Source: an uncultured Actinomycetes bacterium
GTDB taxonomy: Bacteria > Actinomycetota > Actinomycetes > S36-B12 > CAIYMF01
DNA: 32,000 nt
Direction of reading: 5' to 3'
Assembly: GCA_963843975.1 (NCBI GenBank)
Contig: CAWJMG010000001.1
Span: forward strand, 870,001-902,000
This document shows, one piece after another, positions 3,262-30,604 of the stretch. Under the pieces are notes generated by a model. That model ran no database searches. It saw only the letters and a program-made list of their open reading frames with translations, and was not told the DNA's origin. The first letter of the stretch is position 1. Every line of letters begins with the position of its first letter. A program made the position numbers and the translations under genes.

Positions 3262-4686
3262 ATGGATCCCGTGCTCGATCCCTCCGGAACGGTGCCGACC
3301 GGCACGACCGAGCGGTGGCGCGACCGCAAGCGCCACCTGTGGCTCGTCGCGCTCGTCATGCCGCTGCTGCCGTTCGCCGCCGTCCTCCTGCACCAGCGCA
3401 CGGGCGCCACGGTCTGGCTGTGGCTGGGCCCGATCGTGATCCTCGGCGTCGTACCGCTCATCGATCTCGTGACCGGCCTCGACCGCTCGAACCCGCCCGA
3501 CTCCCTCATCGTGGCGCTCGAGCGCGACCCCTACTACCGCTGGATCACGTTCCTGTTCCTGCCGCTGCAGTACGCCGGGTTCGCGTTCGCGTTCTGGTAC
3601 CTCGCGACCGCGGGACTGACCGTCGGCGAGCGGATCGGTCTCGCGATCACTGTCGGCTTCATCGGCGGGCTCGGCATCAACACCGCCCACGAGCTCGGCC
3701 ACAAGAAGGAGAGCCACGAGCGCTGGCTGGCGAAGATCGCCCTCGCCCCGAGCTTCTACGGCCACTTCTACATCGAGCACAACCGCGGCCACCACGTGCG
3801 CGTGGCGACACCCGAGGACCCGGCCAGCAGCCGGCTCGGCGAGACGTTCTACGGCTTCTGGCCGAGGACGGTCGCCGGGTCCGCGCGATCGGCGTGGCAC
3901 CTCGAACGCCGTCGGTACGCGCGACGCCAGCAGAGCCCGTGGCGCCTCGGCAACGACGTCCTCAACGCGTGGCTGATGTCCGTGGCCCTCTGGCTCGCGA
4001 TGGTCCTCTGGCTCGGCATCGGCGTGCTGCCCTACCTCGTGATCCAGGCCGTGATGGCCCTGACCCTGCTCGAGGCCGTGAACTACCTCGAGCACTACGG
4101 CATGCTCCGGCTGCGGGTGGGCGCTGTCGGCTACGAGCGCTATGAGCGCGTCGAGCCCCGCCACAGCTGGAACTCCAACAACATCGCGACCAACGTGCTG
4201 CTCTACCACCTGCAGCGCCACAGCGACCACCACGCGAACCCGACGCGGCGCTACCAGTCGCTCCGGGACTACGAGGAGTCACCCGTCCTGCCCACGGGCT
4301 ACGCCGGGATGATCCTGCTGGCCCTCGTGCCGCCGGCCTGGCGCCGCGTCATGGACCCCCGCGTCCTCGCCCACGTCGACGGCGACCTGTCCCGCGCCAA
4401 CGTCGCGCCGCGCCGGCTCCCCGCCTACGCCGCGCGCTACGGCACCACCGACGCGACACCCGGGGGCGACAGCGTCGTGGCGGCCCCCCTTCTGGCCGAC
4501 GCGACCGGTGGACGCGTGCACCGCTGCCCGGGATGCGGCTACGAGTACGACGAGGTCACGGGCGACGAGCGCGAGGGCTTCGCGGCCGGGACCCCATGGG
4601 TGGACGTGCCCGCCACGTGGTGCTGCCCGGACTGCGGCGTCCGCGACAAGCTCGACTTCGTCGTGGTGCCGGTGGTCGGGTCGTGA
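3262..4686 (+). CDS. alkB: alkane 1-monooxygenase fused to a C-terminal rubredoxin domain
   Basis: Histidine boxes HELGHK, EHNRGHH and LQRHSDHH plus NYLEHYG are present. The C-terminus CPGCGYEYDE...WCCPDCG has rubredoxin knuckles. ATG 3262 follows aggag. The upstream part of the track ORF (3013..) is antisense to the PLDc_N gene. Confidence 0.92.
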   Translation: MDPVLDPSGTVPTGTTERWRDRKRHLWLVALVMPLLPFAAVLLHQRTGATVWLWLGPIVILGVVPLIDLVTGLDRSNPPDSLIVALERDPYYRWITFLFLPLQYAGFAFAFWYLATAGLTVGERIGLAITVGFIGGLGINTAHELGHKKESHERWLAKIALAPSFYGHFYIEHNRGHHVRVATPEDPASSRLGETFYGFWPRTVAGSARSAWHLERRRYARRQQSPWRLGNDVLNAWLMSVALWLAMVLWLGIGVLPYLVIQAVMALTLLEAVNYLEHYGMLRLRVGAVGYERYERVEPRHSWNSNNIATNVLLYHLQRHSDHHANPTRRYQSLRDYEESPVLPTGYAGMILLALVPPAWRRVMDPRVLAHVDGDLSRANVAPRRLPAYAARYGTTDATPGGDSVVAAPLLADATGGRVHRCPGCGYEYDEVTGDEREGFAAGTPWVDVPATWCCPDCGVRDKLDFVVVPVVGS

Positions 4687-19601: not shown

Positions 19602-20324
19602 TCATGCGGTGAAGCGCCGGTTGCACGACACGAAGCGCACGGGCTCGTCGGTGGTGTTGCGGAACAGGTGCGGCACCCCCGAGTCGAACCCGAACGAGTC
19701 GCCCGCGCGCACGACGTACGAGTCGAATCCGTAGGTGATCCCGAGCTCCCCCTGGAGGACGAGCCCGAACTCGTAGCCCTCGTGACGCAGCATCCGGCCG
19801 TCCGTGGTCGAGCTGCTGTGCGGCGCGTAGACCACCTCGAGCAGCTCCATGTCTGGTGCGGTGTTGGTGACGAGCTGCTCCCAGACCACGCCGCTGTCCA
19901 TATCGATACGGCGGCGCTCGCCCGGTCGAGCGATCTCGAAGCGGGCCCGGACGCTCGGCGAGTCGAAGACGTCGACGGGCCCGCCCACAGCGGAGCGACT
20001 CACAGGTCCGGACGCCAGCGCCTCTCGAGCCGGCCGCGGCGAGCCCAGGGGTGACGCGGTCTCGACCGGCGCCGCGGCACCCGCGGCCGTGCCTGCCGTG
20101 ATCGCCGCGACCGTCGCCGCCGTGGCGTCGTCGTCGAAGAGCTGGTCGATACTCACGTCGAGCAGCCGCGTCAGCGAGTAGAGCGTCGACACCGACGGCT
20201 GGGACTTGCCCGTCTCGAGCTGGGAGAGGAACGAGGCGGAGACGTCGAGCTGGCGCGCGGCCTCGCGCAGGCCCAGACCGCGCGCCTCACGCACAGCCCG
20301 AAGCCTCGAACCGATGTTCTCCAT
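19602..20324 (-). CDS. XRE family transcriptional regulator with C-terminal cupin domain
   Basis: HTH LRAVREARGLGLREAARQLDVSASFLSQLETGKSQPSVSTLYSL. The C-terminal beta-rich part has GDSFGFDSGVPHLFRN (cupin). Confidence 0.85.
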   Translation of the reverse strand: MENIGSRLRAVREARGLGLREAARQLDVSASFLSQLETGKSQPSVSTLYSLTRLLDVSIDQLFDDDATAATVAAITAGTAAGAAAPVETASPLGSPRPAREALASGPVSRSAVGGPVDVFDSPSVRARFEIARPGERRRIDMDSGVVWEQLVTNTAPDMELLEVVYAPHSSSTTDGRMLRHEGYEFGLVLQGELGITYGFDSYVVRAGDSFGFDSGVPHLFRNTTDEPVRFVSCNRRFTA

Positions 20325-20419
20325 CGTCCCCCACCCGTCCGGTGTCCCCTGGGCAGATCGTAGTGATCGGCTGAGGCGCCACCCCGCGTCGGGCGGGGCA
20401 GGCTGGCGGCGGTCAGCCG

Positions 20420-20767
20420 TCAGCGCCGCTCCACCAGCTCGTAGAGCCGTCCGTCCGGCGCCGTGAAGTGGGCGTAGCGGCTGACGGCGTTCTCGGAGAT
20501 CTCGTCGTCGACCTCGACGCCGCCCGCTCGCAGCTCGTCCAGTGCCGACGCGAGGTCGTCGACCAAGAACCCGATCGACCGGCCAGTCTCTCCCATACCG
20601 CCGGGTGACGCGACGGCGAAGGCCGTGCCGTCGGGAAGCTCGAACCAGTCGGCCTCGATGCCAGAGACGGCCGTCGTCGGCAGGCCGAGGACGTCCTGCA
20701 GGAAACCCCGCATCTCGGCGCGGTGCTCGGTGGCGGTTCCGGCGAAGCAGAGCCCGAGGATGCGCAT
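20420..20767 (-). CDS. VOC (glyoxalase/bleomycin-resistance fold) family protein
   Basis: 115 aa: MRILGLCF...DGTAFAVASP...GFLVDDLASALDELRAGGVEV...HFTAPDGRLYELV. Confidence 0.7.
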   Translation of the reverse strand: MRILGLCFAGTATEHRAEMRGFLQDVLGLPTTAVSGIEADWFELPDGTAFAVASPGGMGETGRSIGFLVDDLASALDELRAGGVEVDDEISENAVSRYAHFTAPDGRLYELVERR

Positions 20768-20801
20768 CCCCGCACGGTAACGGCCCGCAGCGCGCCGGCG
20801 C

Positions 20802-22001
20802 TCAGTCGTCGGACGACGGCACGAACGAGCTGAGCCACGTCAGGCTCAGCACCACGACCACGAGGAGCGCGAGCAGCCACGGCGCAGGCGCAATCGCGCC
20901 GAGCAGCAGCGCCAGGCCCGCGCCGACGACGTAGACCCTCGTGCGCGTGCGGCTGTCGATGGCGTCGCGCTGCTCTACCGCCGACGACTCGAGCGCGATC
21001 ACGAGCAGGATGACCGCCACGGCGCCGGTCAGCGTCCACGCCACCGCGGTGGGAGTCCGTGGCTCGTGGGCCTCGACGAGGAGGCCCACCATGGCGGCAC
21101 CCGCCACGGCCACGGCTCCGGTCAGCGGCAGGTGCCCGAAGAACCAGGTGGCCAGGGCGCTTCGGTCCTCTCGGGGCTCGCGAGCGCCGACCATGTCGAA
21201 GTAGTTCCAGAAGATGCCGAACCCGATCACCAGGCCGAGCACCCCGGTCGCGATCGTGAGGGCGTCGCGGTCCGTCTCGTTGATGCCGTTGACGACCCCG
21301 ACGACCGTCTCGCCCAGCACGATGATCACGAACAGCGCCATGCGCTCCACGAGCGACTCGGTCGGCTGGAAGAACGACAACGGCCGCGAGCGGCCCAGGA
21401 AACCCGTGAGCCCGAGCACCACCCAGCCGATGCTGATGCCGATCCATACGGAGATGCGCGGGACGTCAGAGAGCCAGGCCGACGCGAGCGTGGCCACGAT
21501 GGTGACCGTGAGCCCGACGAGGTACGGCGTCGACGCCGGCTTGTCCTGCGGCAGGTCGTGACGCCGCACCTCGTACCACTGCCAGAACAGCAGGAGCAGC
21601 AGCACCGAGTACGTCAGCGCGAACGCCGTGCCGTCCTTGATGCCGGCGTACCCGGTGAAGACGGCGAGGACGGCGAGGGCGCCCATCTGCGCGAAGACGT
21701 AGAACCGGCTGCGGCCGTCCTCGCGGCCGTGCAGCTCGTGGTAGAGCGTGCCGTTGATCCACGCGATCCACACGAGCCCGAAGACCGCCACGAACTCGGC
21801 AGTTCCGCGCCACCCGGGGTGGGCGGCGAGCGTGTGCGCGGCCTGGCCGACGAGGACGACGTAGACGAGGTCGTAGAACAGCTCGAGGTAGCTGACCGAA
21901 CGCAACGGGAGCGGCTCGCCGTGACGGCGCGGCCCCGCGCCGAACCACGCGCGCAGCCGGTGCTTCACGCTGCGGCCGCTCTGCGGCTGCACCTCGGACA
22001 T
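20802..22001 (-). CDS. ltrA: low temperature requirement protein A (LtrA) family membrane protein
   Basis: Start 22001 follows aggagg. ...VSYLELFYDLVYVVLVGQ...WIAWINGTLYHELHG... is LtrA-like and polytopic. Confidence 0.8.
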   Translation of the reverse strand: MSEVQPQSGRSVKHRLRAWFGAGPRRHGEPLPLRSVSYLELFYDLVYVVLVGQAAHTLAAHPGWRGTAEFVAVFGLVWIAWINGTLYHELHGREDGRSRFYVFAQMGALAVLAVFTGYAGIKDGTAFALTYSVLLLLLFWQWYEVRRHDLPQDKPASTPYLVGLTVTIVATLASAWLSDVPRISVWIGISIGWVVLGLTGFLGRSRPLSFFQPTESLVERMALFVIIVLGETVVGVVNGINETDRDALTIATGVLGLVIGFGIFWNYFDMVGAREPREDRSALATWFFGHLPLTGAVAVAGAAMVGLLVEAHEPRTPTAVAWTLTGAVAVILLVIALESSAVEQRDAIDSRTRTRVYVVGAGLALLLGAIAPAPWLLALLVVVVLSLTWLSSFVPSSDD

Positions 22002-22176
22002 CACGCCTCCTGGCCCTGCCGCGACCCGCGGCCAGGCCATGGAACCACGCGAAGGGCAGGCAGTGCCCTCACGGCCCAGCAGTGGCGACGTGCATGAGGC
22101 CGTGGCTGCGCCCGTCGTCGCGATCTCAGCCGGAGTGGGTCTGGACAAGCAGAGCCCGGCCCCGAAGGCTGGGGGC

Positions 22177-22776
22177 ATGTCGTTCGTCAATCCTGGGTTC
22201 CACGGACGCCGGCGAGACACGTCCGACCGGATCCCTCCCGGGCAGTTCCGCACCGACGACTTCCCGGTGCTCTCCGCTGGTCCGACCCCGCGCATCGACC
22301 TCGACACCTGGCGCTTCACGATCACCACCGAGGGCGGTGCGACCCGCGACTGGACGTGGGCGCAGCTGCAGGCGATGCCGCGCGAGACGCCGACCGTCGA
22401 CATCCACTGCGTCACCAAGTGGTCCAGGCTCGACACCGTCTGGGAGGGCGTCTCGCTCGACGTCCTCATGGAGGACGTCGAGACGGCCTCCGACTACGCC
22501 CTCGTGCAGTCGTACGGCGGCTACACCACCAACCTCCCGCTCGACGACCTCCTCGACGGGCAGGCCTGGCTGGTGTTCGGCTACGACGGCGAGCCGCTCG
22601 AGCCGGTGCACGGGGGCCCGGTACGGCTGCTCGTGCCGCACCTCTACCTCTGGAAGTCGGCGAAGTGGGTGCGCGGCATCCAGCTGCTGCTGCAGGACGA
22701 GCCAGGCTTCTGGGAGACGCTGGGCTACCACGAGTACGGCGATCCCTGGCGCGAGCAGCGCTACGCGGGCGACTGA
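22177..22776 (+). CDS. small cytoplasmic molybdopterin-dependent oxidoreductase (sulfite-oxidase fold)
   Basis: HCVTKWS (Mo-ligand Cys context), GGYTTNLPL, EPLEPVHGGPVRLLVPHLYLWKSAKWV. I see no signal peptide. Confidence 0.8.
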   Translation: MSFVNPGFHGRRRDTSDRIPPGQFRTDDFPVLSAGPTPRIDLDTWRFTITTEGGATRDWTWAQLQAMPRETPTVDIHCVTKWSRLDTVWEGVSLDVLMEDVETASDYALVQSYGGYTTNLPLDDLLDGQAWLVFGYDGEPLEPVHGGPVRLLVPHLYLWKSAKWVRGIQLLLQDEPGFWETLGYHEYGDPWREQRYAGD

Positions 22777-23492
22777 TGCGCCGTCTTCGCTGGACGGCGG
22801 CGACGGTCGTCGAGGCACAGTACGAGACGCCCACCGCGCGGACCCTCGTGCTCGACGTGCCGGGATGGCAGGGCCACCTCCCAGGACAGCACGTCGACGT
22901 GCGGCTCACGGCCGAGGACGGATACAGCGCCCAACGCAGCTACTCGATCGCGTCGGCGCCCGACGGCACGCGTGTCGAGATCACCGTCCAGCGGATTCAG
23001 GACGGCGAGGTGTCGCCGTACCTCGTCGACGTCGTGGCCGTCGGCGACCTGATCGAGCTCCGCGGGCCGGTGGGCGGCTGGTTCAGCTGGGACCCGGTCG
23101 GCACAGACCCGGTGCTGTTGGTCGCCGGCGGGTCCGGGCTCGTGCCGCTCATGGCGATGGTCCGCACCCGACAGGCCGTGGGCAGCACCGCGCCGTTCCG
23201 CCTGGTGTGCTCGGTGCGGAGCCCCGAGGAGGCGCTCTACCTCGACGAGATCGACGCCCTCCCCACCGAGATCCCGGTCGTGCTGGCCTTCACCCGTGAG
23301 GCGCCCGCCGGATCGGAGCGGCCGGTGGGCCGCGTGACGCTGAGCGATCTGGGGCGCGCCGCCGACCCGTCCGAGACCGTCTACGTGTGCGGTCCCACCG
23401 GCTTCGTCGAGGCGGTGGCAACCATGCTCGTGACGCTCGGGCACGACCCCAACCAGATCCGCACCGAGCGCTTCGGAGGAGGCAGGGCATGA
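22776..23492 (+). CDS. ferredoxin-NADP reductase-like FAD/NAD(P)-binding oxidoreductase
   Basis: The ATG overlaps the upstream stop (TGATG). RSYSIAS (RxYS FAD motif), GGSGLVP (NAD motif), VYVCGP. Confidence 0.8.
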   Translation: MRRLRWTAATVVEAQYETPTARTLVLDVPGWQGHLPGQHVDVRLTAEDGYSAQRSYSIASAPDGTRVEITVQRIQDGEVSPYLVDVVAVGDLIELRGPVGGWFSWDPVGTDPVLLVAGGSGLVPLMAMVRTRQAVGSTAPFRLVCSVRSPEEALYLDEIDALPTEIPVVLAFTREAPAGSERPVGRVTLSDLGRAADPSETVYVCGPTGFVEAVATMLVTLGHDPNQIRTERFGGGRA

Positions 23493-23767
23493 GCGACATC
23501 GGCTACTCGGACGGCAACCTGCTCGCAGGTCCGCTCAGCGACCTGTTCGCCGTCGACCTCACCATCGCGACGACCGCCTGCTCCGGCTGCGGCAAGGTCG
23601 ACCGCATCGCCGCGCTGCACGTGTACGTCGTCGGCGAAGGGTACGTCGCGCGCTGCCCCGGCTGCGGCGACGCCGTGCTGCGCTTCCTACGCACGCCGAC
23701 CCAGGTGGTCCTCGACCTGCGCGGCACCTTCAGCCTGCGGGTGCCGATCGTCGAGTCCACCGGCTGA
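23489..23767 (+). CDS. small four-Cys (CxxCG ... CPxCG) protein, DUF6510-like
   Basis: ATGA overlap with the upstream gene. 92 aa with CSGCGK and CPGCGD knuckles. Confidence 0.7.
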   Translation: MSDIGYSDGNLLAGPLSDLFAVDLTIATTACSGCGKVDRIAALHVYVVGEGYVARCPGCGDAVLRFLRTPTQVVLDLRGTFSLRVPIVESTG

Positions 23768-23797: not shown

Positions 23798-23828
23798 ACG
23801 AAGGGCCCCGGCATCGCCGGGGCCCTTC
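23798..23828. terminator. perfect 14-bp stem / 3-nt loop hairpin (bidirectional terminator-like)
   Basis: cgaagggccccggc-atc-gccggggcccttcg. It lies between the triad's last gene and the tRNA-Thr fragment's 3' end. Confidence 0.7.
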
Positions 23829-23833
23829 GTGCG

Positions 23834-23883
23834 TGGAGCCGCCTATCGGAATCGAACCGATGACCTACGCATTACGAGAGCGT
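23834..23883 (-). other. 3' portion (anticodon arm to CCA) of tRNA-Thr(CGU); the 5' half is absent, so this is an att-like remnant
   Basis: The minus strand reads acgct-CTCGTAA-tgcgt aggtc atcgg-ttcgatt-ccgat aggcggc t cca. The 26 nt upstream cannot form the acceptor or D arm (no gccgcct). Confidence 0.75.
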
Positions 23884-24120
23884 CGCAGGCAGGCGTGAGG
23901 CTCGCCGCTACCCGCCAGATCACCACGGTACGAGCACAAACGGGCCGTTCTATGTCGGCGTGTGACGGTTGCTCGGGGACGAGACGGGGACGAGCTCGTC
24001 CGCTAGGGCGCCATGGTTCTGTGGCTCGGCGTCATGATCTTCATGCTCATCTTCGTGCTCTTCATCATCGTCCTGCCGCCGCGCGCTCAGTGCCGTACTA
24101 CAACGATCGTCGTGTTAACC

Positions 24121-24186
24121 GACAACGTCCCGAAGAGGACCCTTTCCATCATGAACAGGGTTTACAGACAACGTCTTGAAGAGGAC
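24121..24186 (+). promoter_or_regulatory. 20-nt direct repeat pair GACAACGTCCCGAAGAGGAC / GACAACGTCTTGAAGAGGAC (candidate operator)
   Basis: Copies at 24121..24140 and 24167..24186, 18 of 20 identical, 46 nt start to start. The second copy covers the RBS-like gaagagga just before ATG 24188. Confidence 0.5.
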
Positions 24187-24187
24187 T

Positions 24188-24904
24188 ATGTCGGTTATGG
24201 CGACGAGATCAGGAGGGCAGTTCGTGGCGGTCGAGGAGGCCGCCCGCCTGCTGGATGTGACCAAGCGCCATGTTGCGCGACTGGGCGACCTTGGCCAGAT
24301 CCGCTACGTCGGTCGCGGCCTCGTGGATCGCGACTCGATAGCCGAGTACCTGCAGGAGCGTGACTTCTACCGGTCCCGGGCGTGGAGTGAGGAGACTGCG
24401 TGGGGTGCAGTGGCCCTGCTGTCCGGTCTTCACGTCGACTGGCTCGGCCAAGTGCAGACATCCCGGCTGAGGGGCCGGCTTAGAGAACTCGCCGAAGACG
24501 AGCGAGGTGCGAACGAACTGGTCGGTCGGACCCGCAACCGAGCCCGCGTGATGCGGTACGAGTCGTATGGATTCTTGGCGGCGCGGCTGCGCAAGGAGAT
24601 CGTGCCCGTCAGCCGACGGCGGCTGGGGCTCGCCGACACAAAGCAGGTAGACGGGTACATCGACACCGAGCGGCTGGCCGCGCTGGAGGGGCAGTACGGC
24701 CTTCGTCGCAGCTCCCGTGGCGACATGACCATGAGGTCGACGTCATTCGACTTGAGCGTCGTGAAGACGATCGCGAGCCGAGGGAACGGCGCGCTCGCTG
24801 CCCTGGACGCAGCCGGCTCGATGGATGCGCGTGAGCACGGCGCTGGTTCGCGCGCCCTCGCCATGCATCTCGAGAGGTTCGCGGAAGGGCGCGCGCGTGA
24901 CTAG
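24188..24904 (+). CDS. excisionase/MerR-type HTH (HTH_17-like) domain protein with an uncharacterised C-terminal domain
   Basis: FVAVEEAARLLDVTKRHVARLGDLGQIRYVGRGLVDRDSIAEYL resembles excisionase-family HTH. Start could be ATG 24188 or 24197 (the track's TTG 24176 is less likely). Stop is TAG 24902..24904. Confidence 0.7.
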   Translation: MSVMATRSGGQFVAVEEAARLLDVTKRHVARLGDLGQIRYVGRGLVDRDSIAEYLQERDFYRSRAWSEETAWGAVALLSGLHVDWLGQVQTSRLRGRLRELAEDERGANELVGRTRNRARVMRYESYGFLAARLRKEIVPVSRRRLGLADTKQVDGYIDTERLAALEGQYGLRRSSRGDMTMRSTSFDLSVVKTIASRGNGALAALDAAGSMDAREHGAGSRALAMHLERFAEGRARD

Positions 24905-25676
24905 GCCGGTGCCCGACCGCGGAACAGACGACGACAGACGTCCCACGTTTGACGTGAAGGCACCGGCCGGTGGCTGGGGGGACCCATGGCCGAACGTAGC
25001 CGAGATCGCGCGGGTGCTACCCACGAACCGATGGACGCTGATCGGTGGCCTGATGACGCAACTGCATGCGATCCACCATGGCGTCGACGCCGTCCGGCCG
25101 ACCAACGACGTTGACATCGCACTCCACATAGAGACGGCCCGAGGGACGCCGAACACGACAGCAGACGCGCTGGAGTCACTGGGCTACGAGCTCAAGCCGA
25201 GCATCGATCCGAGAAACAACGTCGGCCATCGGTTCACGCGCGGAGTGAGCCGTGTCGACGTCGTCGGCGGCCACGAGGCCGATGACGATGACGATGTAGT
25301 CGACGTCGTTATCGCGGATCACCCAGCGCCGAGCGTGCAGGAGCGGATGCGGCGTATGGACATGGTGAAAGTGCCAGGAGGAACGCAGGCACTGCGCCGA
25401 ACGGCCAACTACCGTCTGACCTTCAACGAGGAAACCCCGGTCACGATCTCGGTACCGCAACCATTCGGGGCGCTCATCCTCAAGACCGCGGCGTACGTAT
25501 CGGACAGCCGGGACCCGGCACGCCACCTCCAGGACGCCGCCGTGCTCCTCGCATGCATCGACGATCCCTTCGCCGAACTCGACCGACTGGCCGGTTCTGA
25601 CCGTGGCCGCCTGGCGATACTGGATCGCGAGCTCGACAGATGCCCACCCGGCATGGCGATTGATGCCCCGTGCTGA
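24897..25676 (+). CDS. Pol-beta-fold nucleotidyltransferase-like protein (AbiEii-like candidate)
   Basis: TLIGGLMTQLHAIHHGVDAVRPTNDVDIAL fits hG[GS]-x(9-13)-D-h-D-h. GTG 24897 overlaps the upstream gene by 8 nt, but the start is uncertain. The C-terminal half is helical. Confidence 0.6.
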   Translation: MTRPVPDRGTDDDRRPTFDVKAPAGGWGDPWPNVAEIARVLPTNRWTLIGGLMTQLHAIHHGVDAVRPTNDVDIALHIETARGTPNTTADALESLGYELKPSIDPRNNVGHRFTRGVSRVDVVGGHEADDDDDVVDVVIADHPAPSVQERMRRMDMVKVPGGTQALRRTANYRLTFNEETPVTISVPQPFGALILKTAAYVSDSRDPARHLQDAAVLLACIDDPFAELDRLAGSDRGRLAILDRELDRCPPGMAIDAPC

Positions 25677-25885
25677 CGCCGATCGAGGACGAGCAGTGCT
25701 TCGCGTGCTCACAAGTCCTCAGTAGCGGGTCCAGGGCGCCGCACGACCTGACGGGGAGCCCGCTCCGGAATCGAGTCCACGACCTTCGCAGCGAGGCGAC
25801 CGCCCCGACATGGTTGGTCTGCCGCCGGGGCGCAGCACCACCCCCTCCGGCAGCGACGACCTATCCGGACGCGCACTCGCGCAAC

Positions 25886-25928
25886 TTCCCAAGCTGACAG
25901 TGCGGGTTCGATTCCCGTCACCCGCTCC
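25886..25928 (+). other. 3' portion (anticodon loop to acceptor) of tRNA-Gly(CCC); the 5' half is absent, so this is an att-like remnant
   Basis: TTCCCAA-gctga cagt gcggg-ttcgatt-cccgt cacccgc t cc. The expected 5' anticodon-stem strand tcagc is replaced by gcaac, and no gcgggtg acceptor or D arm lies upstream. Confidence 0.7.
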
Positions 25929-26600: not shown

Positions 26601-27686
26601 CTAGAAGTCTTCGTCGAGGGAGAACGCGCCGCCGACGGCGACCTGATAGGCGCTGACGCGTCGTTCGAAGAAGTTGGACAGTTCCTGGACGTCTTGGAGC
26701 TCCATGAACGCGAACGGGTTGGTGCTGCCGTAGATCGGTTCCAGTCCGAGCTGTTCGAGGCGGCGGTCAGCGACATGCTCGAGGTACTGCCGCATGTCGA
26801 TCGTGGACATCCCCGCGACGCCCTGGCCCAGAAGGTCCTGCGCGAACGTGGCCTCGCACTCGACCGCGTCGGTGAGCATCTGGCCAACTCGGTCGGCGAG
26901 GTCGGTGTCGAAGAGGTCGGGTTCCTCTTCCCGAGCGGCGGCGACCACGTCGAGGGCGAAGGCCATGTGCATGGACTCGTCGCGGAACACCCAGTTGGTT
27001 CCTGAGGCTAGTCCGTGGAGCAGACCGCGTGAGCGCAGGAAGTAGACGTAGGCGAAGGCACCGTAGAAGAACAGGCCCTCGATGCAGGCAGCGAAGCAGA
27101 TCACGTTGAGCAGGAACGCCTTGCGGTCCTCTCGTGTCTCCAACCGTGTGAGGTCGGCGAGGGAGTTGATCCAGCGGAAGCAGAACTCCGCCTTGGCTCG
27201 AATGGAGGGGATGTTCTCCACCGCCGCGAACGCCTGCACCCGCTCTGCCTCGTCCGGAAGGTAGGTGTCGAGGAGGTTGAGGTAGAACTGGACGTGCACG
27301 GCCTCCTCGAAGAGTTGCCGCGAGAGGTAGAGCCGAGCCTCGGGTGCGTTGATGTGCTGGTAGAGGTTGAGTACCAGGTTGTTGGCCACGATGGTGTCAC
27401 CGGTGGCGAAGAACGCGACGAGGCGGTTCACCAGGTGCCGTTCGGCGGTGCTGAGCTTGGCGAGGTCGGCCAGGTCGTTGTGCAGGTCGACCTCCTCGAC
27501 GGTCCAGGTGTTCTTGATCGCGTCCTTGAACCGGTCGAAGAACTGCGGGTAGCGCATCGGGCGCAGGGTGAGGTCCAGGCCCGGGTCGAGCAGGAGCCTG
27601 CGCTCCCGTGGTTCGGTGGTGATCTTCGCGTCGCTGGGTCGTGCTGCTCCCGGGCGGACGTCGGTCACGGGCTCGGTCGTGGTCAT
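26601..27686 (-). CDS. nrdB: ribonucleoside-diphosphate reductase beta subunit (class I, Tyr-radical type)
   Basis: MTTTEPV... start at 27686. Metal and radical motif EEAVHVQFY (Tyr at His+4), ...RDESMH..., C-terminal SLDEDF. Confidence 0.92.
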   Translation of the reverse strand: MTTTEPVTDVRPGAARPSDAKITTEPRERRLLLDPGLDLTLRPMRYPQFFDRFKDAIKNTWTVEEVDLHNDLADLAKLSTAERHLVNRLVAFFATGDTIVANNLVLNLYQHINAPEARLYLSRQLFEEAVHVQFYLNLLDTYLPDEAERVQAFAAVENIPSIRAKAEFCFRWINSLADLTRLETREDRKAFLLNVICFAACIEGLFFYGAFAYVYFLRSRGLLHGLASGTNWVFRDESMHMAFALDVVAAAREEEPDLFDTDLADRVGQMLTDAVECEATFAQDLLGQGVAGMSTIDMRQYLEHVADRRLEQLGLEPIYGSTNPFAFMELQDVQELSNFFERRVSAYQVAVGGAFSLDEDF

Positions 27687-27753: not shown

Positions 27754-30217
27754 TTACTGACAGGCCTCGCAGGACTCCGGGTTCTCCAGCGAGCACGACA
27801 CGGCGGCCGGGTCTGCGTCGATGAGCGACATCGTCTGATCAGCTGGGGCACTCATGGGTTCGTCGCTTCGGGCGCGGCCGACGGAAACGGTGGCCTGCTG
27901 GATGCGGGTTGCCGGGCGTGATCGCAGGTAGTACGTCGTCTTGAGCCCTGTTCGCCACGCGTGCAGGTACATCGAGGAGAGCTTCCCGATGGACGGGGTG
28001 GACAGGAACAGGTTGAGCGACTGGCTCTGGTCGATGTAAGGCTGGCGTGCGGCCGCGAGCTCGATCAGCGCTTTCTGCGGGAGTTCCCAGGCGGTGCGGA
28101 ACAGGTGCCGGACATCGGCCGGGACCGTGTTCAGGTCCTGCACGGAGCCGTTGTCACGCTTGATCACCGAGCGGGTGTCCTCGGTCCAGGCCCCGTGTCG
28201 TTTCAGGGCTGCGACCAAGGCGGTGTTGATCTGCAGGAACTCCCCGGAGAGGGTCTCGCGCTTGAACACGTTGGACACCTGGGGCTCGATGCATTCGTAG
28301 CACCCAGCGATGCTCGCGATCGTCGCGGTCGGGGCGATCGCGACCAGCAGCGAGTTGCGCAGGCCTGACGCGGCGACGCGGTCCCGAAGCGCGGCCCAGC
28401 GCTCGGCTTGGGTGACCGAGACGCCGTAGTGGTCCAGGTGCAGCACACCGCGCGCCGCACGGGTCTGGGAGTAGGCCGGGTGCGGGCCGTGGAGCTCGGC
28501 GAGCTCGGCCGAGGTCTCCAGCGCGGTGAGGTAAACCTCCTCCGCGATCACGGTCGACAGGGTTCGTGCCTGGTCGCTGTCGAAGGGCAGGCCGAGGGCG
28601 AAGAACACGTCCTGCAGACCCATGACACCCAGGCCCACGGGCCGCCAGCGCGGGTTGCTGGCCCGCGCCTGGGTGCTCGGGTAGTAGTTGATGTCGATCA
28701 CGCGGTCCAGGAACCGCACCGCGGTGCGCACGGTCGCGCGGAAGCTTGGGCCAGTCCAACGTCGATGCAGCCTGGTCGAGGTGGACGGCGAGGTTGACCG
28801 AGCCGAGATTGCATACCGCCGTCTCGGTGTCGTTGGAGACTTCCAGGATCTCGGTGCACAGGTTCGACAGGTGCACCACGTTGGGCGGCTCGGCGGTCTG
28901 GTTGCAGGTGCGGTTGGCGGCGTCCTTGAACGTCATCCACCCGTTGCCGGTCTGGGCCAGGGTGCGCATCATCTTGCTGTAGAGGTCGCGGGCCTTCACC
29001 GTCCGCACGACACGTCCGGCCGCTTCCGCGCGGCGGTAGGCCTCGTCGAAGTCCGCCCCCCACAGGTCCACGAGCTCCGGAGCCTGGGAGGGGTCGATCA
29101 GCGACCAGTCCTGATCGGCCTCGACGCGGCGCATGAACTCGTCCGGGATCCAGTTGGCGAGGTTGAGGTTGTGCGTGCGTCGGGCATCCTCGCCGGTGTT
29201 GTCGCGCAGCTCGAGGAACTCCTCGATATCGGGGTGCCAGGTCTCCAGGTACACACACGCCGCACCCTTGCGCCGCCCGCCCTGGTTCACCGCCGCGACC
29301 GACGCGTCCAACGTCCGAAGCCAGGGCACGATGCCGTTCGAGTGCCCGTTCGTCCCGCGGATCAGCGCACCCCTCCCGCGCACCCGTGACCACGAGATGC
29401 CGATACCGCCGGCGAACTTCGACAGCTTCGCGACCTGCGCGTACCGGTCGTAGATCGAGTCGAGCTCATCACGCGGGGAGTCCAGCAAGTAGCAGGAGGA
29501 CATCTGGGAGTGCCGCGTGCCGGAGTTGAACAGCGTCGGTGAGCTCGGCAAGTACGCCAGCGACGACATCAACCGGTAGAACTCGATCGCGTCCGCCGGC
29601 GTCGTGGCCAGACCGCACGCCACCCGCAGCAACCAGTACTGCGGGGTCTCGACCACAACCCGGTCGATCGGGTGACGAAGCAGGTAGCGGTCATAGACCG
29701 TGCGCAAGCCGAAGTACTCGAAGCGCTGGTCCTCCTCCGGTGTGATCGCATGATCGAGCTTGCGAGCGTTCTGCGCCACGAACTGCGCCGTCGCGTCACC
29801 GATCAACCCCTCCCGATGACCCAGCACCACGCTCTGACTGAACGACGCGATGCCCTGGCCACGGACCTCCTTGTCGATCACCCCAGCGAGCAGGCGCGCC
29901 GCCAGCAGCGAGTACTGCGGCTCCTCCCCCACCAACTCCGCGGCGGTCTGGATCGAGAGCCGGTCCAGCTCGACCGTCGTCGCGCCATCGAACAGGCCAC
30001 TGATCGTCCTGGTCGCTACCCTCAATGGATCGACGTCATCAAGATCGAGGGCGCAGCGCTCAACCGCGCGCACGATCTTGTTCACGTCGACCAGTTCGAG
30101 GTCACCGTTGCGCTTGCGGACCTGCATCTGGTGCCGACGCATCGGCGCAGCACCGAGGGGTGGGGTGTCCTCGACGTGCACCGTGGCAGTGGTCGAGTCG
30201 ACGGATACTGAAGACAC
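27754..30217 (-). pseudogene. nrdA: ribonucleoside-diphosphate reductase alpha subunit (class Ia) carrying a +1 frameshift (or a sequencing error)
   Basis: GTG 30217 follows gaggagagag. The N-terminal frame is good through ...CNLGSVNLAVHLDQAASTLDWPKL. The C-terminal frame resumes at RATVRTAVRFLDRVIDINYYP and ends ...ENPESCEACQ*. The junction is at about 28738..28747. Confidence 0.85.
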
Positions 30218-30354
30218 GGGCTCTCTCCTCGTGAGCGCGGACCACAAGGTCCACGCCAGCGCGAGAGACAGCGAGCACAACCTGCCCATCACGGCAGACG
30301 TGTCCCTGAGCCCCTCCCACGAAGGCCGCGGACCACCCGCACGCGACGCGCGCG

Positions 30355-30554
30355 GGGAGGTGGCAGGTCTTCGGACTCGTGGGCATGACCACTGTCGTGA
30401 TCGCCTACCGGCCATCGCTTCCCAGACACCCAGCGGCGCCCAGTGCTTCGTTGACGGCTTTCGTTCCCACTCACCGCTGCGGGGCAGTCCCGGACTTGCA
30501 CCGGGTTCCCTCTTGCGACGACCCCCCTGGCTGACGGGCCGAACCAACCTCGGA
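30355..30554 (-). promoter_or_regulatory. cobalamin (B12) riboswitch in the nrdAB leader
   Basis: The minus strand contains agagggaacccggtgcaagtccgggactgccccgcagcggtgag, cactgg...ctgggaagcg and the B12 box agtccgaagacctgcc (plus-strand 30361..30377). A P1-like pairing gaggt(t)gg / ccacctc is possible. Confidence 0.85.
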
Positions 30555-30556
30555 AC

Positions 30557-30604
30557 GGACGATATCTAGTGGCGGCAGGTTGTCACGGCATCAACATGTT
30601 GTGG
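30557..30604 (-). promoter_or_regulatory. two tandem NrdR-box-like 16-mers overlapping the nrdAB promoter
   Basis: The minus strand has CCACAACATGTTGATG (30604..30589) and CCACTAGATATCGTCC (30572..30557). By hand count they match 10 and 11 of 16 positions of the acaCwAtATaTwGtgt consensus. The centres are 32 bp apart. Confidence 0.55.

Follow-up and report, generated by a model that had tools for sequence, protein, structure and literature searches.

Toxins of the DUF1814 (AbiEii/MenT) kind are among the most abundant effectors of toxin-antitoxin (TA) systems and phage defense, and their control is an active question. In MenT1, MenT3, and AbiEii, the Ser or Thr residue of the R-x-S/T-x-D-x-D loop is auto-phosphorylated upon antitoxin binding (PMC11375011; bioRxiv 10.64898/2026.01.19.700257); the proposal that unrelated antitoxins induce this modification dates from 2024, and a 2026 preprint has carried it over to AbiE. 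That DUF1814 toxins are served by diverse antitoxins is already known from MenA1-4 (PMC11375011). Here we describe a pair of overlapping genes, open reading frames (ORFs) ORF1 and ORF2, at positions 24188 to 25676 of a 32,000-nucleotide stretch of DNA from an uncultured Actinomycetes bacterium (contig CAWJMG010000001.1), referred to below as the window. The pair is best explained, with a probability of about 0.72 for the explanation as a whole, including the mechanism and the decayed element on which it lies, as a bicistronic, translationally coupled TA operon of the AbiE/MenAT kind.

Two overlapping genes kept side by side in Actinomycetota

The ORF list of the window holds two long ORFs on the forward strand within positions 24176 to 25676. 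ORF1, the putative antitoxin and autorepressor gene, spans 24197 to 24904 and encodes 235 amino acids (238 if read from ATG 24188), while ORF2, as it now reads, spans 24897 to 25676 and encodes 259 amino acids of a predicted DUF1814/AbiEii/MenT-type nucleotidyltransferase toxin with all the catalytic motifs intact. Both candidate start codons of ORF1, ATG 24188 and ATG 24197, are conserved, and judging by the sequence, it may be the latter that is used. ORF1 ends with TAG at 24902 to 24904, and with GTG 24897 lying in the frame of ORF2, the two genes overlap by 8 nucleotides (nt). An earlier, preliminary description of this DNA had made the overlap depend on GTG 24897 being the start of the second gene; this agrees with the sequence and with the presence of an ATG at the homologous position in the two closest relatives, loci L001 and L002.

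When each GTDB species was represented by one genome, the scan yielded 225 relatives of ORF2, and 80 loci were kept for the locus counts. In 79 of these 80 actinobacterial loci, the gene directly upstream and on the same strand is an ORF1 homolog, so the preliminary description's proviso that the idea would fall if homologs were never adjacent elsewhere turned out in its favor. The genera in question include Nocardioides, Aeromicrobium, Nocardia, Mycobacterium, Gordonia, Promicromonospora, Isoptericola, Cellulomonas, and Dactylosporangium, among others. The commonest overlaps between the toxin start and the antitoxin stop are 4 nt (28 of 77 loci) and 8 nt (20 of 77), together 48 of 77. In a word-indexed protein database, ORF2 had 1153 homologs at E ≤ 1e-3 and ORF1 had 121, and an exhaustive search at E ≤ 1e-10 brought the ORF1 class to 838 clusters at 50% identity, found on chromosomes and plasmids of Actinomycetota. 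Homologs of ORF2 and ORF1 occur on 38 and 32 actinobacterial plasmids, respectively, and plasmids of Rhodococcus and Arthrobacter carry the pair. On plasmid 1 of Arthrobacter sp. FB24, the two genes overlap by 8 nt and are annotated as "helix-turn-helix domain-containing protein" and "hypothetical protein."

Compared with L001 and L002 (94.5% identical DNA), the ratio of nonsynonymous to synonymous substitution rates (dN/dS) is 0.15 to 0.18 for ORF1 and 0.38 to 0.46 for ORF2, few substitutions standing behind the latter value. By this measure, ORF1 appears to be under purifying selection. The GC content of third codon positions (GC3) is 0.79 in ORF1 and 0.76 in ORF2 versus 0.91 to 0.95 in two upstream genes, which bears out the remark made earlier that the codon usage of the pair is unlike that of its neighbors. 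Two other ORFs overlapping the pair, one of 178 amino acids on the antisense strand (25176 to 25712) and one of 116 amino acids (24013 to 24363), were treated as shadow ORFs, as they are without homolog support and the forward-strand genes are strongly conserved. Decayed copies of the pair occur elsewhere: the toxin is split in two frames in L076 (2097 to 2866) and the antitoxin is split in L073 (5336 to 5996). A 62%-identical toxin homolog, in two pieces with 82% coverage, lies at 20268 to 20986 of the unannotated "Bacteriophage sp." contig MT835669.1 from human fecal samples.

ORF2 resembles the DUF1814 nucleotidyltransferase toxins

By its sequence and predicted structure, ORF2 belongs to the DUF1814/AbiEii/MenT family of nucleotidyltransferase toxins, in which it is a divergent member at the edge of PF08843. 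This family, whose gathering score is 22.5 bits, was matched by 18 of 37 close ORF2 homologs. Six homologs (P0023, P0024, P0119, P0120, P0066, and P0056) that are 60 to 71% identical to ORF2 (E 1e-87 to 1e-104) score 22.6 to 27.4 bits against profile positions 6 to 219 and all pass the gathering score; since they are unambiguous relatives, ORF2 can be placed in PF08843 by transitive membership. The Pfam search proposed in the preliminary description thus found PF08843 in the close homologs and failed to find it in ORF2 itself, and P0001, which is 95% identical to ORF2, likewise had no Pfam match at E ≤ 1. Some members of the ORF2 family bear the NCBI name "AbiEii/AbiGii toxin family protein."

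The AlphaFold model of the toxin was built on P0001, an intact relative. It had a predicted local distance difference test score (pLDDT) of 84.5, a predicted template modeling score (pTM) of 0.85, and a C-terminal half that is helical, as had been anticipated for the second product. The best Foldseek match of the model in the PDB was Pb27 (5UVD), with an E value of 1.1e-4, a probability of 1.00, and template modeling (TM) scores of 0.47/0.56, and the second was MenT3 (8XHR), with an E value of 4.5e-3, a probability of 0.99, a TM-score of 0.45, and about 14% identity. Both Pb27 and MenT3 are members of the DUF1814 superfamily (bioRxiv 10.64898/2026.01.19.700257). The matches are thus nucleotidyltransferases, and the structure comparison, which could have placed the protein outside this fold, places it within.

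Four motifs of the toxin family were defined by Dy et al. (PMC3985639). Motifs I and II are present in ORF2 as L-I-G50-G51 ... R67-P-T69-N-D71-V-D73. In 115 homologs, R67, T69, D71, and D73 are invariant, and the whole signature from G50-G51 to D73 is invariant or nearly so, as is D136; this near-invariance and the fold search substantiate the Pol-beta nucleotidyltransferase signature first recognized by eye. The spacer between G and D has 19 residues in the ORF2 family versus about 15 in the family motif. Motif III, in the toxin family a Lys with hydrophobic surroundings and an Arg after it (KLxAaxxR-like), is present as L-I-L-K196-T-A-A-Y-V-S-D203-S-R205, with K196, D203, and R205 invariant and the Arg located at K+9, not K+7. 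Motif IV takes the form R209-H210-L-Q-D213, in which R209 and H210 are invariant, D213 is nearly so, and His replaces the first Asp; in a MenT3 ortholog, the motif is H-D-L-V-D.

The spacing of R67/T69/D71/D73 is the same as that of R63/T65/D67/D69 in AbiEii (PMC3985639; bioRxiv 10.64898/2026.01.19.700257) and of R76/S78/D80/D82 in MenT3, as read from the MenT3 ortholog in L203. An hhalign comparison of the toxin family with a single MenT3 ortholog put the loop residues in register, with an E value of 0.07. T69 is therefore the counterpart of the Ser or Thr that MenT1, MenT3, and AbiEii auto-phosphorylate.

A HEPN/MNT system was ruled out: ORF2 in its intact length has about 275 amino acids, with a DUF1814-type helical C-terminal domain, and is not a minimal nucleotidyltransferase of about 100 to 150 amino acids. 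Neither protein of the pair matched HEPN/DUF86 or NTP_transf_2/5 in Pfam. In PADLOC, 24 of 37 toxin homologs weakly matched the candidate defense protein PDC-M21B (best E 1e-3).

ORF1 is a two-domain protein, AbiEi-like at most at its N terminus

ORF1 consists of an N-terminal Xis/AbiEi-like winged helix-turn-helix (HTH; residues ~9 to 57) and a conserved alpha/beta C-terminal domain of about 170 amino acids. In its AlphaFold model (pLDDT 89.5, pTM 0.78), the first ~55 residues superpose on HTHs of the Xis/BldC/MerR type, and the sequence searches agree. Direct profile searches of Pfam, NCBIfam, and PADLOC with both window proteins gave only a subthreshold HTH, namely, HTH_17 in ORF1 at 23 bits, below the 27-bit cutoff. 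In the ORF1 family, HTH_17 was matched by 80 of 83 members, the NCBIfam domain "excise" by 49, and AbiEi_4 weakly by 55 of 83 (best E 4e-7), HTH_17 scoring better than AbiEi_4; the window ORF1 itself had no AbiEi_4 match in Pfam. The 80 matches and the superposition of the model confirm the HTH that had been noticed at the start of the first product.

With an L001 ORF as the seed, canonical AbiEi proteins of actinobacteria (AbiEi_4 plus AbiEi_1) were made into a profile, which was compared with the ORF1 family by hhalign. The two aligned over 55 columns, in the first ~55 to 70 residues only, with a probability of 81% and an E value of 1.2e-5. The opinion voiced previously that the DNA-binding domain is not the AbiEi winged helix therefore needs qualification: the antitoxin is not a canonical AbiEi, yet its N-terminal ~55 to 70 residues do align to the AbiEi profile. 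The ~170 amino acids after the HTH, which could not be placed before, likewise matched no model in Pfam, NCBIfam, or PADLOC and no structure in the PDB or BFVD by Foldseek. The C-terminal antitoxicity domains of AbiEi (PF09407, PF11459, and PF09952) were not detected in the ORF1 family, while the canonical AbiEi of L001 shows one of them, and sequence and profile searches of the PDB with ORF1 found no AbiEi. As far as its sequence tells, ORF1 is not a canonical AbiEi and is AbiEi-like at most in its N-terminal part.

ORF1 could represent a distinct, uncatalogued class of antitoxins for DUF1814 toxins, with a C-terminal domain of new fold, a view that we hold as tentative and give somewhat less than an even chance. 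If it is true, the class would provide a fifth route of control of DUF1814 toxins, after MenA1, MenA2, MenA3/AbiEi, and MenA4, and could neutralize in a way different from the loop-induced auto-phosphorylation of AbiEi. The possibility that ORF1 is a simple excisionase or recombination directionality factor (HTH_17, TIGR01764) was rejected, as the protein has 235 amino acids and a second conserved domain and the surrounding islet is without an integrase ORF. Of 81 antitoxin homologs, 55 matched the MADS system protein mad1 in PADLOC, with a best E value of 4e-9 and presumably via the HTH.

Repeated modules upstream of the pair form a putative operator

Two direct copies of a 40-nt module, spaced by 46 nt, are located on the forward strand upstream of and over the start of ORF1. 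The distal copy, a putative operator, lies at 24114 to 24153 (GTTAACCGACAACGTCC..AGGAC..), and the proximal copy, a putative operator/promoter, at 24160 to 24199 (GTTTACAGACAACGTCTTGAAGAGGACTATGTCGGTTATG), where it ends on the ORF1 start codon ATG 24197. The same two-copy arrangement, with a spacing of 46 to 47 nt, recurs in L001, L002, L003 (N. speluncae), L005, and L076; the proteins of these module-bearing loci are just 64 to 74% identical, and their DNA can no longer be aligned farther upstream. Across the six loci, the proximal copy, CTTTACAGAYAACGTCTYGAAGAGGACYATGTCKGTTATG, hardly varies. Within it lies an imperfect inverted repeat, TTACAGAC...GTCGGTTA, and each module carries such a repeat of the form TTACAGAC ... 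GTCKGTTA.

Since AbiEi and Rv2827c repress their own operons by binding promoter repeats (PMC3985639, PMC7319586), the two modules are, by analogy, likely binding sites of the ORF1 antitoxin and hence its operator. A consensus scan for promoters and terminators found nothing in the islet. Read by eye, a -35 element TTTACA (24161 to 24166) and a -10 element GACTAT (24184 to 24189) would give a leaderless transcript beginning at ATG 24197. Just 5' of the modules, at 24013 to 24090 on the forward strand, a 12-nt tandem repeat (ATCTTCATGCTC / ATCTTCGTGCTC) lies in a locally AT-richer stretch; in translation, it gives a mini-ORF of very hydrophobic residues (MVLWLGVMIFMLIFVLFIIVLPP...). Its conservation is limited to L001 and L002, which are near-identical, and it is absent from L003, L005, and L076.

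A frameshift removes the end of the toxin in this genome

In the DNA alignment, ORF2 of the window carries an inserted G at position 25635 of the forward strand (GAGCTC[G]ACAGATG) that shifts its reading frame. This G is absent from L001, L002, and L081, three independent relatives, in an alignment otherwise 96% identical, and its context is not a homopolymer. A tblastn search with P0001 followed frame 3 up to residue 252 and found residues 247 to 275 to be 100% identical in frame 1 (25636 to 25722). The ORF2 stop at 25676 is thus due to the 1-nt insertion, and the last 13 codons are out of frame; the ancestral 3' end of the toxin gene, encoding its last 29 residues, lies at 25636 to 25725 on the forward strand, now out of frame, and includes the ancestral stop codon TAG at 25723 to 25725. 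The family hidden Markov model accordingly matches the window ORF2 up to position 241 of 267, versus 265 to 267 in the other loci. The segment lost comprises two C-terminal helices (residues 251 to 255 and 258 to 272), predicted with a pLDDT of 88 to 98 and bearing the near-invariant W253, L268, and L271; every catalytic residue is upstream of the frameshift. Because the insertion replaces the last ~29 conserved residues, the toxin copy in this genome is probably attenuated or dead, the antitoxin being intact, and the locus, probably a remnant in decay, is likely to matter little to the physiology of the organism.

It is also conceivable, if rather unlikely, that the locus is still fully functional, either because the extra G is an assembly error or because the shortened toxin, with 13 unrelated residues in place of its two C-terminal helices, is active and is checked by the intact antitoxin. 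The location of all the catalytic residues ahead of the frameshift would allow for this, as would an antitoxin both intact and under purifying selection and the intact operator modules, and the full protein identity of the out-of-frame tail to the relatives implies that the event is either recent or artifactual. Against it, the insertion is outside any homopolymer run, and the segment lost is confidently folded and bears near-invariant residues. Copies at other loci have decayed as well, as exemplified by the split toxin of L076 and the split antitoxin of L073, and the element around the window copy is clearly decayed. We therefore keep to the reading of an attenuated or dead toxin.

The pair lies on a remnant of a mobile element bordered by tRNA fragments

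The pair is located on an islet of ~2 kb (23832 to 25874), common to the window and its closest relatives, that we regard as a mobile-element remnant. Its DNA is 94.3 to 94.7% identical to L001 (4936 to 6975) and L002 (107 to 2118), with the similarity ending at both borders, and its GC content is about 65%, versus 70 to 72% in the flanks. At its left edge lies a 5'-truncated fragment of tRNA-Thr(CGU) on the reverse strand (23834 to 23894), extending from the anticodon arm to the CCA end, which we take for the remnant of an attachment (att) site; its Rfam score of 25.8 bits is below the 29-bit gathering score, and the D arm and the 5' part of the acceptor are missing. Eight nt beyond the right border lies a 47-nt, 5'-truncated fragment of tRNA-Gly(CCC) on the forward strand (25882 to 25928), extending from the anticodon stem to the 3' end and identical in 46 of 47 positions to the intact tRNA-Gly(CCC) of L088. 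Of 25 metagenomic loci checked, 19 have a tRNA-Gly called by ARAGORN of which the 27-mer at 25902 to 25928 is the 3' end. The only two T-loop motifs in the window are those of the two fragments. ARAGORN called no tRNA gene in the whole window, the sole Rfam family above threshold in it was a cobalamin riboswitch away from the pair, and RNA folding of the two tRNA fragments gave nothing informative. The tRNA-bounded islet of the preliminary description is thus right in spirit, the borders being tRNA derived, but they are formed by 3' fragments of two tRNAs and not by tRNA genes.

In L001, the islet is flanked by two direct-repeat copies of the tRNA-Thr fragment, a pattern characteristic of integrations in tandem at a single tRNA, and in view of these copies, we interpret the window islet, the right end of which is shorter than in L001, as a decayed remnant. 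Its being bounded by att-type fragments of two different tRNAs suggests a deletion between two former integration sites. In L010, an intact tRNA-Thr(cgt) adjoins the pair. The window islet contains no integrase ORF, and the set of an intact tRNA, a direct repeat, and an integrase that marks a tRNA-integrated genomic island was not found there, the fragments coming from different tRNAs on opposite strands. An ORF fragment downstream of the toxin in L001 and L081 was considered as an integrase remnant but received no support from Pfam or PDB searches.

The setting bears on the question of whether the main role of the system is abortive infection of phage-attacked cells, as in lactococcal AbiE, and not the addiction to or stabilization of mobile DNA. 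AbiE is a known abortive infection (Abi) system and among the most abundant defense systems (PMC3985639; bioRxiv 10.64898/2026.01.19.700257). The window and L001 copies both reside on islets associated with tRNA, other TA pairs abound in L001, and a tRNA gene is located within ~300 nt of the pair in seven loci. On the other hand, neither protein is recognized by the PADLOC models, the family matches being weak (E around 1e-3), neither integrase nor defense families are enriched beside the pair, with no integrase among the 25 commonest neighbor families, and occurrence on many large plasmids fits addiction equally well. Defense as the main role seems rather unlikely to us.

Several other features were observed around the islet and in the related loci. 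The 27-mer of the tRNA-Gly 3' end occurs without an intact tRNA in L111, L086, L096, L107, L112, and L125; in L111 (2675 to 8961), four copies within 6.3 kb look like arrays of att remnants from serial integrations. Between the DUF6510 gene and the tRNA-Thr fragment of the window, at 23798 to 23830, there is a perfect 15-bp GC-rich hairpin (ACGAAGGGCCCCGGC / GCCGGGGCCCTTCGT), probably a terminator without a T-run, for which the terminator scan made no call. Upstream of it, at 22039 to 23767 on the forward strand, three chromosomal genes of very high GC3 form an apparently overlapping set and encode a molybdopterin oxidoreductase (PF00174), a flavin adenine dinucleotide (FAD)/nicotinamide adenine dinucleotide (NAD)-binding protein of the ferredoxin reductase type, and the DUF6510 protein. 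The cobalamin riboswitch (89 bits; 30345 to 30564, reverse strand) is upstream of a ribonucleotide reductase gene cluster, in which the small-subunit gene (26601 to 27599, reverse strand) matches PF00268; a long ORF at 28154 to 30547 on the same strand overlaps the riboswitch and lies upstream. Positions 1 to 4640 of L001 are packed with other small TA-like pairs, and a canonical AbiEi (AbiEi_4, 50.9 bits) is encoded at 4073 to 4636 on its reverse strand with no toxin ORF beside it. L001, L002, and L004 are labeled as metagenome-assembled genomes of Bifidobacterium breve yet are 89 to 95% identical in DNA to the high-GC window, so misbinning seems likely. Three Bifidobacterium plasmids carry more distant toxin homologs.

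A model of the operon and the evidence for and against it

The layout likened earlier to that of AbiEi/AbiEii has been borne out by the adjacency of the two genes, the PF08843 matches of close homologs, the fold match to MenT3 and Pb27, and the catalytic motifs. By analogy with MenT1/3/4 and AbiEii, the ORF2 nucleotidyltransferase would extend tRNA at its 3' CCA end by added nucleotides, so that aminoacylation, translation, and growth stop. The winged HTH of ORF1 would bind the two 40-nt modules upstream of and over its own start codon and thereby repress the operon, and the C-terminal domain of ORF1 would neutralize the toxin. The most likely route of neutralization is that ORF1, by binding the toxin, causes it to auto-phosphorylate on Thr69, an invariant residue located two positions ahead of the first catalytic Asp. 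This step is the least secure one, because the C-terminal domain of ORF1 is unrelated to that of AbiEi or MenA3. The module presumably came on a small element integrated at a tRNA; the integrase of this element is now gone, and neither of its tRNA junctions is intact any longer.

A number of observations weigh against this model. Even at E ≤ 1, the window ORF2 itself matched nothing in Pfam, NCBIfam, or PADLOC, sequence and profile searches of the PDB with the ORF2 family found neither a MenT nor an AbiEii, the TM-scores to MenT3 and Pb27 are only 0.45 to 0.56, and the statistics of the hhalign match to the MenT3 ortholog are weak. Motif IV is R-H-x-x-D instead of the canonical +DxxD. With no similarity between the C-terminal domain of ORF1 and that of AbiEi, the mechanism of neutralization is not confidently transferable, and as MenA4/MenT4 illustrates, not every member of the family uses phosphorylation (PMC11375011). 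The commonest neighbors of the pair in other genomes are housekeeping and metabolic genes, e.g., that for glutamine synthetase, and not defense islands, and with its toxin frameshifted, the locus may do nothing in this organism.

It is very improbable that the pair is no TA system at all, with ORF1 an excisionase or element regulator and ORF2 a nontoxic nucleotidyltransferase, maybe one that modifies small molecules or antibiotics like ANT(2'')-Ia, a member of the DUF1814 superfamily: the N-terminal domain of ORF1 is indeed nearest to Xis/BldC/MerR HTHs, with NCBIfam giving the "excise" domain only, the superfamily does include nontoxin enzymes (bioRxiv 10.64898/2026.01.19.700257), and the window copy sits on the remnant of an integrative element, but ORF1 has 235 amino acids and a conserved extra domain versus the 50 to 80 amino acids of Xis, an integrase is found neither in the islet nor among the common neighbor families, the overlapping-codon coupling of the pair is kept in nearly all loci in any context, and the invariant R-x-T-x-D-x-D phospho-acceptor loop together with motifs III and IV is a toxin signature.

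The TA operon of the AbiE/MenAT kind thus stands as the preferred reading. To speak of an unrecognized family or an undescribed system, as was done initially, would be an overstatement, given that PF08843 takes in the toxin at its margin and that NCBI already names some members AbiEii/AbiGii. Since diverse antitoxins of MenT toxins are known, the pair is a variant within the known AbiE/MenAT kind and not a new kind. The family is underannotated rather than undiscovered, because neither gene is recognized by PADLOC and many copies are unnamed in RefSeq. Current annotation misses the pair, RefSeq giving "HTH domain-containing protein" and "hypothetical protein" and PADLOC making no call, and profiles for it would improve the annotation of TA and defense systems in Actinomycetota. 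The toxin family has kept the phospho-acceptor loop, yet the predicted neutralizing domain of its partner is unrelated to any studied one; since an intact loop is paired here with an unrelated antitoxin domain, the pair offers a natural test of how general antitoxin-induced auto-phosphorylation is.

Comparison with known systems

The MenA3-MenT3 system (Rv1044-Rv1045) and the other MenAT systems of Mycobacterium tuberculosis are likewise actinobacterial two-gene operons in which the antitoxin comes first; no M. tuberculosis ortholog was seen among the 80 loci. MenT3, the best bacterial structural match of ORF2, has the same pol-beta nucleotidyltransferase core followed by a helical C-terminal domain and an R-x-S/T-x-D-x-D loop in register with that of the ORF2 family, in which the Lys of motif III and the Asp of motif IV are also present. 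The two differ in that ORF2 is only ~14% identical to MenT3, with a TM-score of 0.45, and that its spacer from G-G to D is longer by about four residues. The C-terminal domain of ORF1 is, as far as profile and fold searches see, unrelated to that of MenA3/AbiEi.

The AbiEi-AbiEii system of Streptococcus agalactiae and Lactococcus lactis (COG5340-DUF1814), formerly a type IV and now a proposed type VII TA and Abi system, has an antitoxin gene that overlaps the 5' end of the toxin gene, by 4 nt in S. agalactiae (PMC3985639) and by 4 or 8 nt in the pair described here. The two systems further have in common a two-domain antitoxin with an N-terminal winged HTH, repeats in the promoter region (for ORF1, a putative one), and carriage on mobile elements; motifs I to III of AbiEii match those of ORF2, and the phospho-acceptor Thr is equally spaced. 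Unlike AbiE, the window proteins fall short of the Pfam and PADLOC models of that system. The HTH of the ORF1 family scores higher against the excisionase-type HTH_17 than against AbiEi_4, the AbiEi C-terminal domain is not detected, and the putative operator consists of two direct copies of a 40-nt module, in contrast to the two 23-bp inverted repeats of AbiE.

Pb27 (Paracoccidioides brasiliensis; 5UVD), a nucleotidyltransferase-like protein of the DUF1814 superfamily, is the best overall structural match of ORF2, although it is a fungal antigen whose enzymatic role is not known, has 16% identity to ORF2, and comes with neither an antitoxin partner nor an operon context. With the MerR-like HTHs of the Xis/BldC type, such as that of the mycobacteriophage Pukovnik Xis (4J2N), ORF1 shares both the sequence and the fold of its N-terminal ~50 residues. 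Those proteins have a single domain, are about 55 to 70 amino acids long, and act with an integrase or as developmental regulators, whereas ORF1 adds a ~170-amino-acid domain and is coupled to a nucleotidyltransferase gene.

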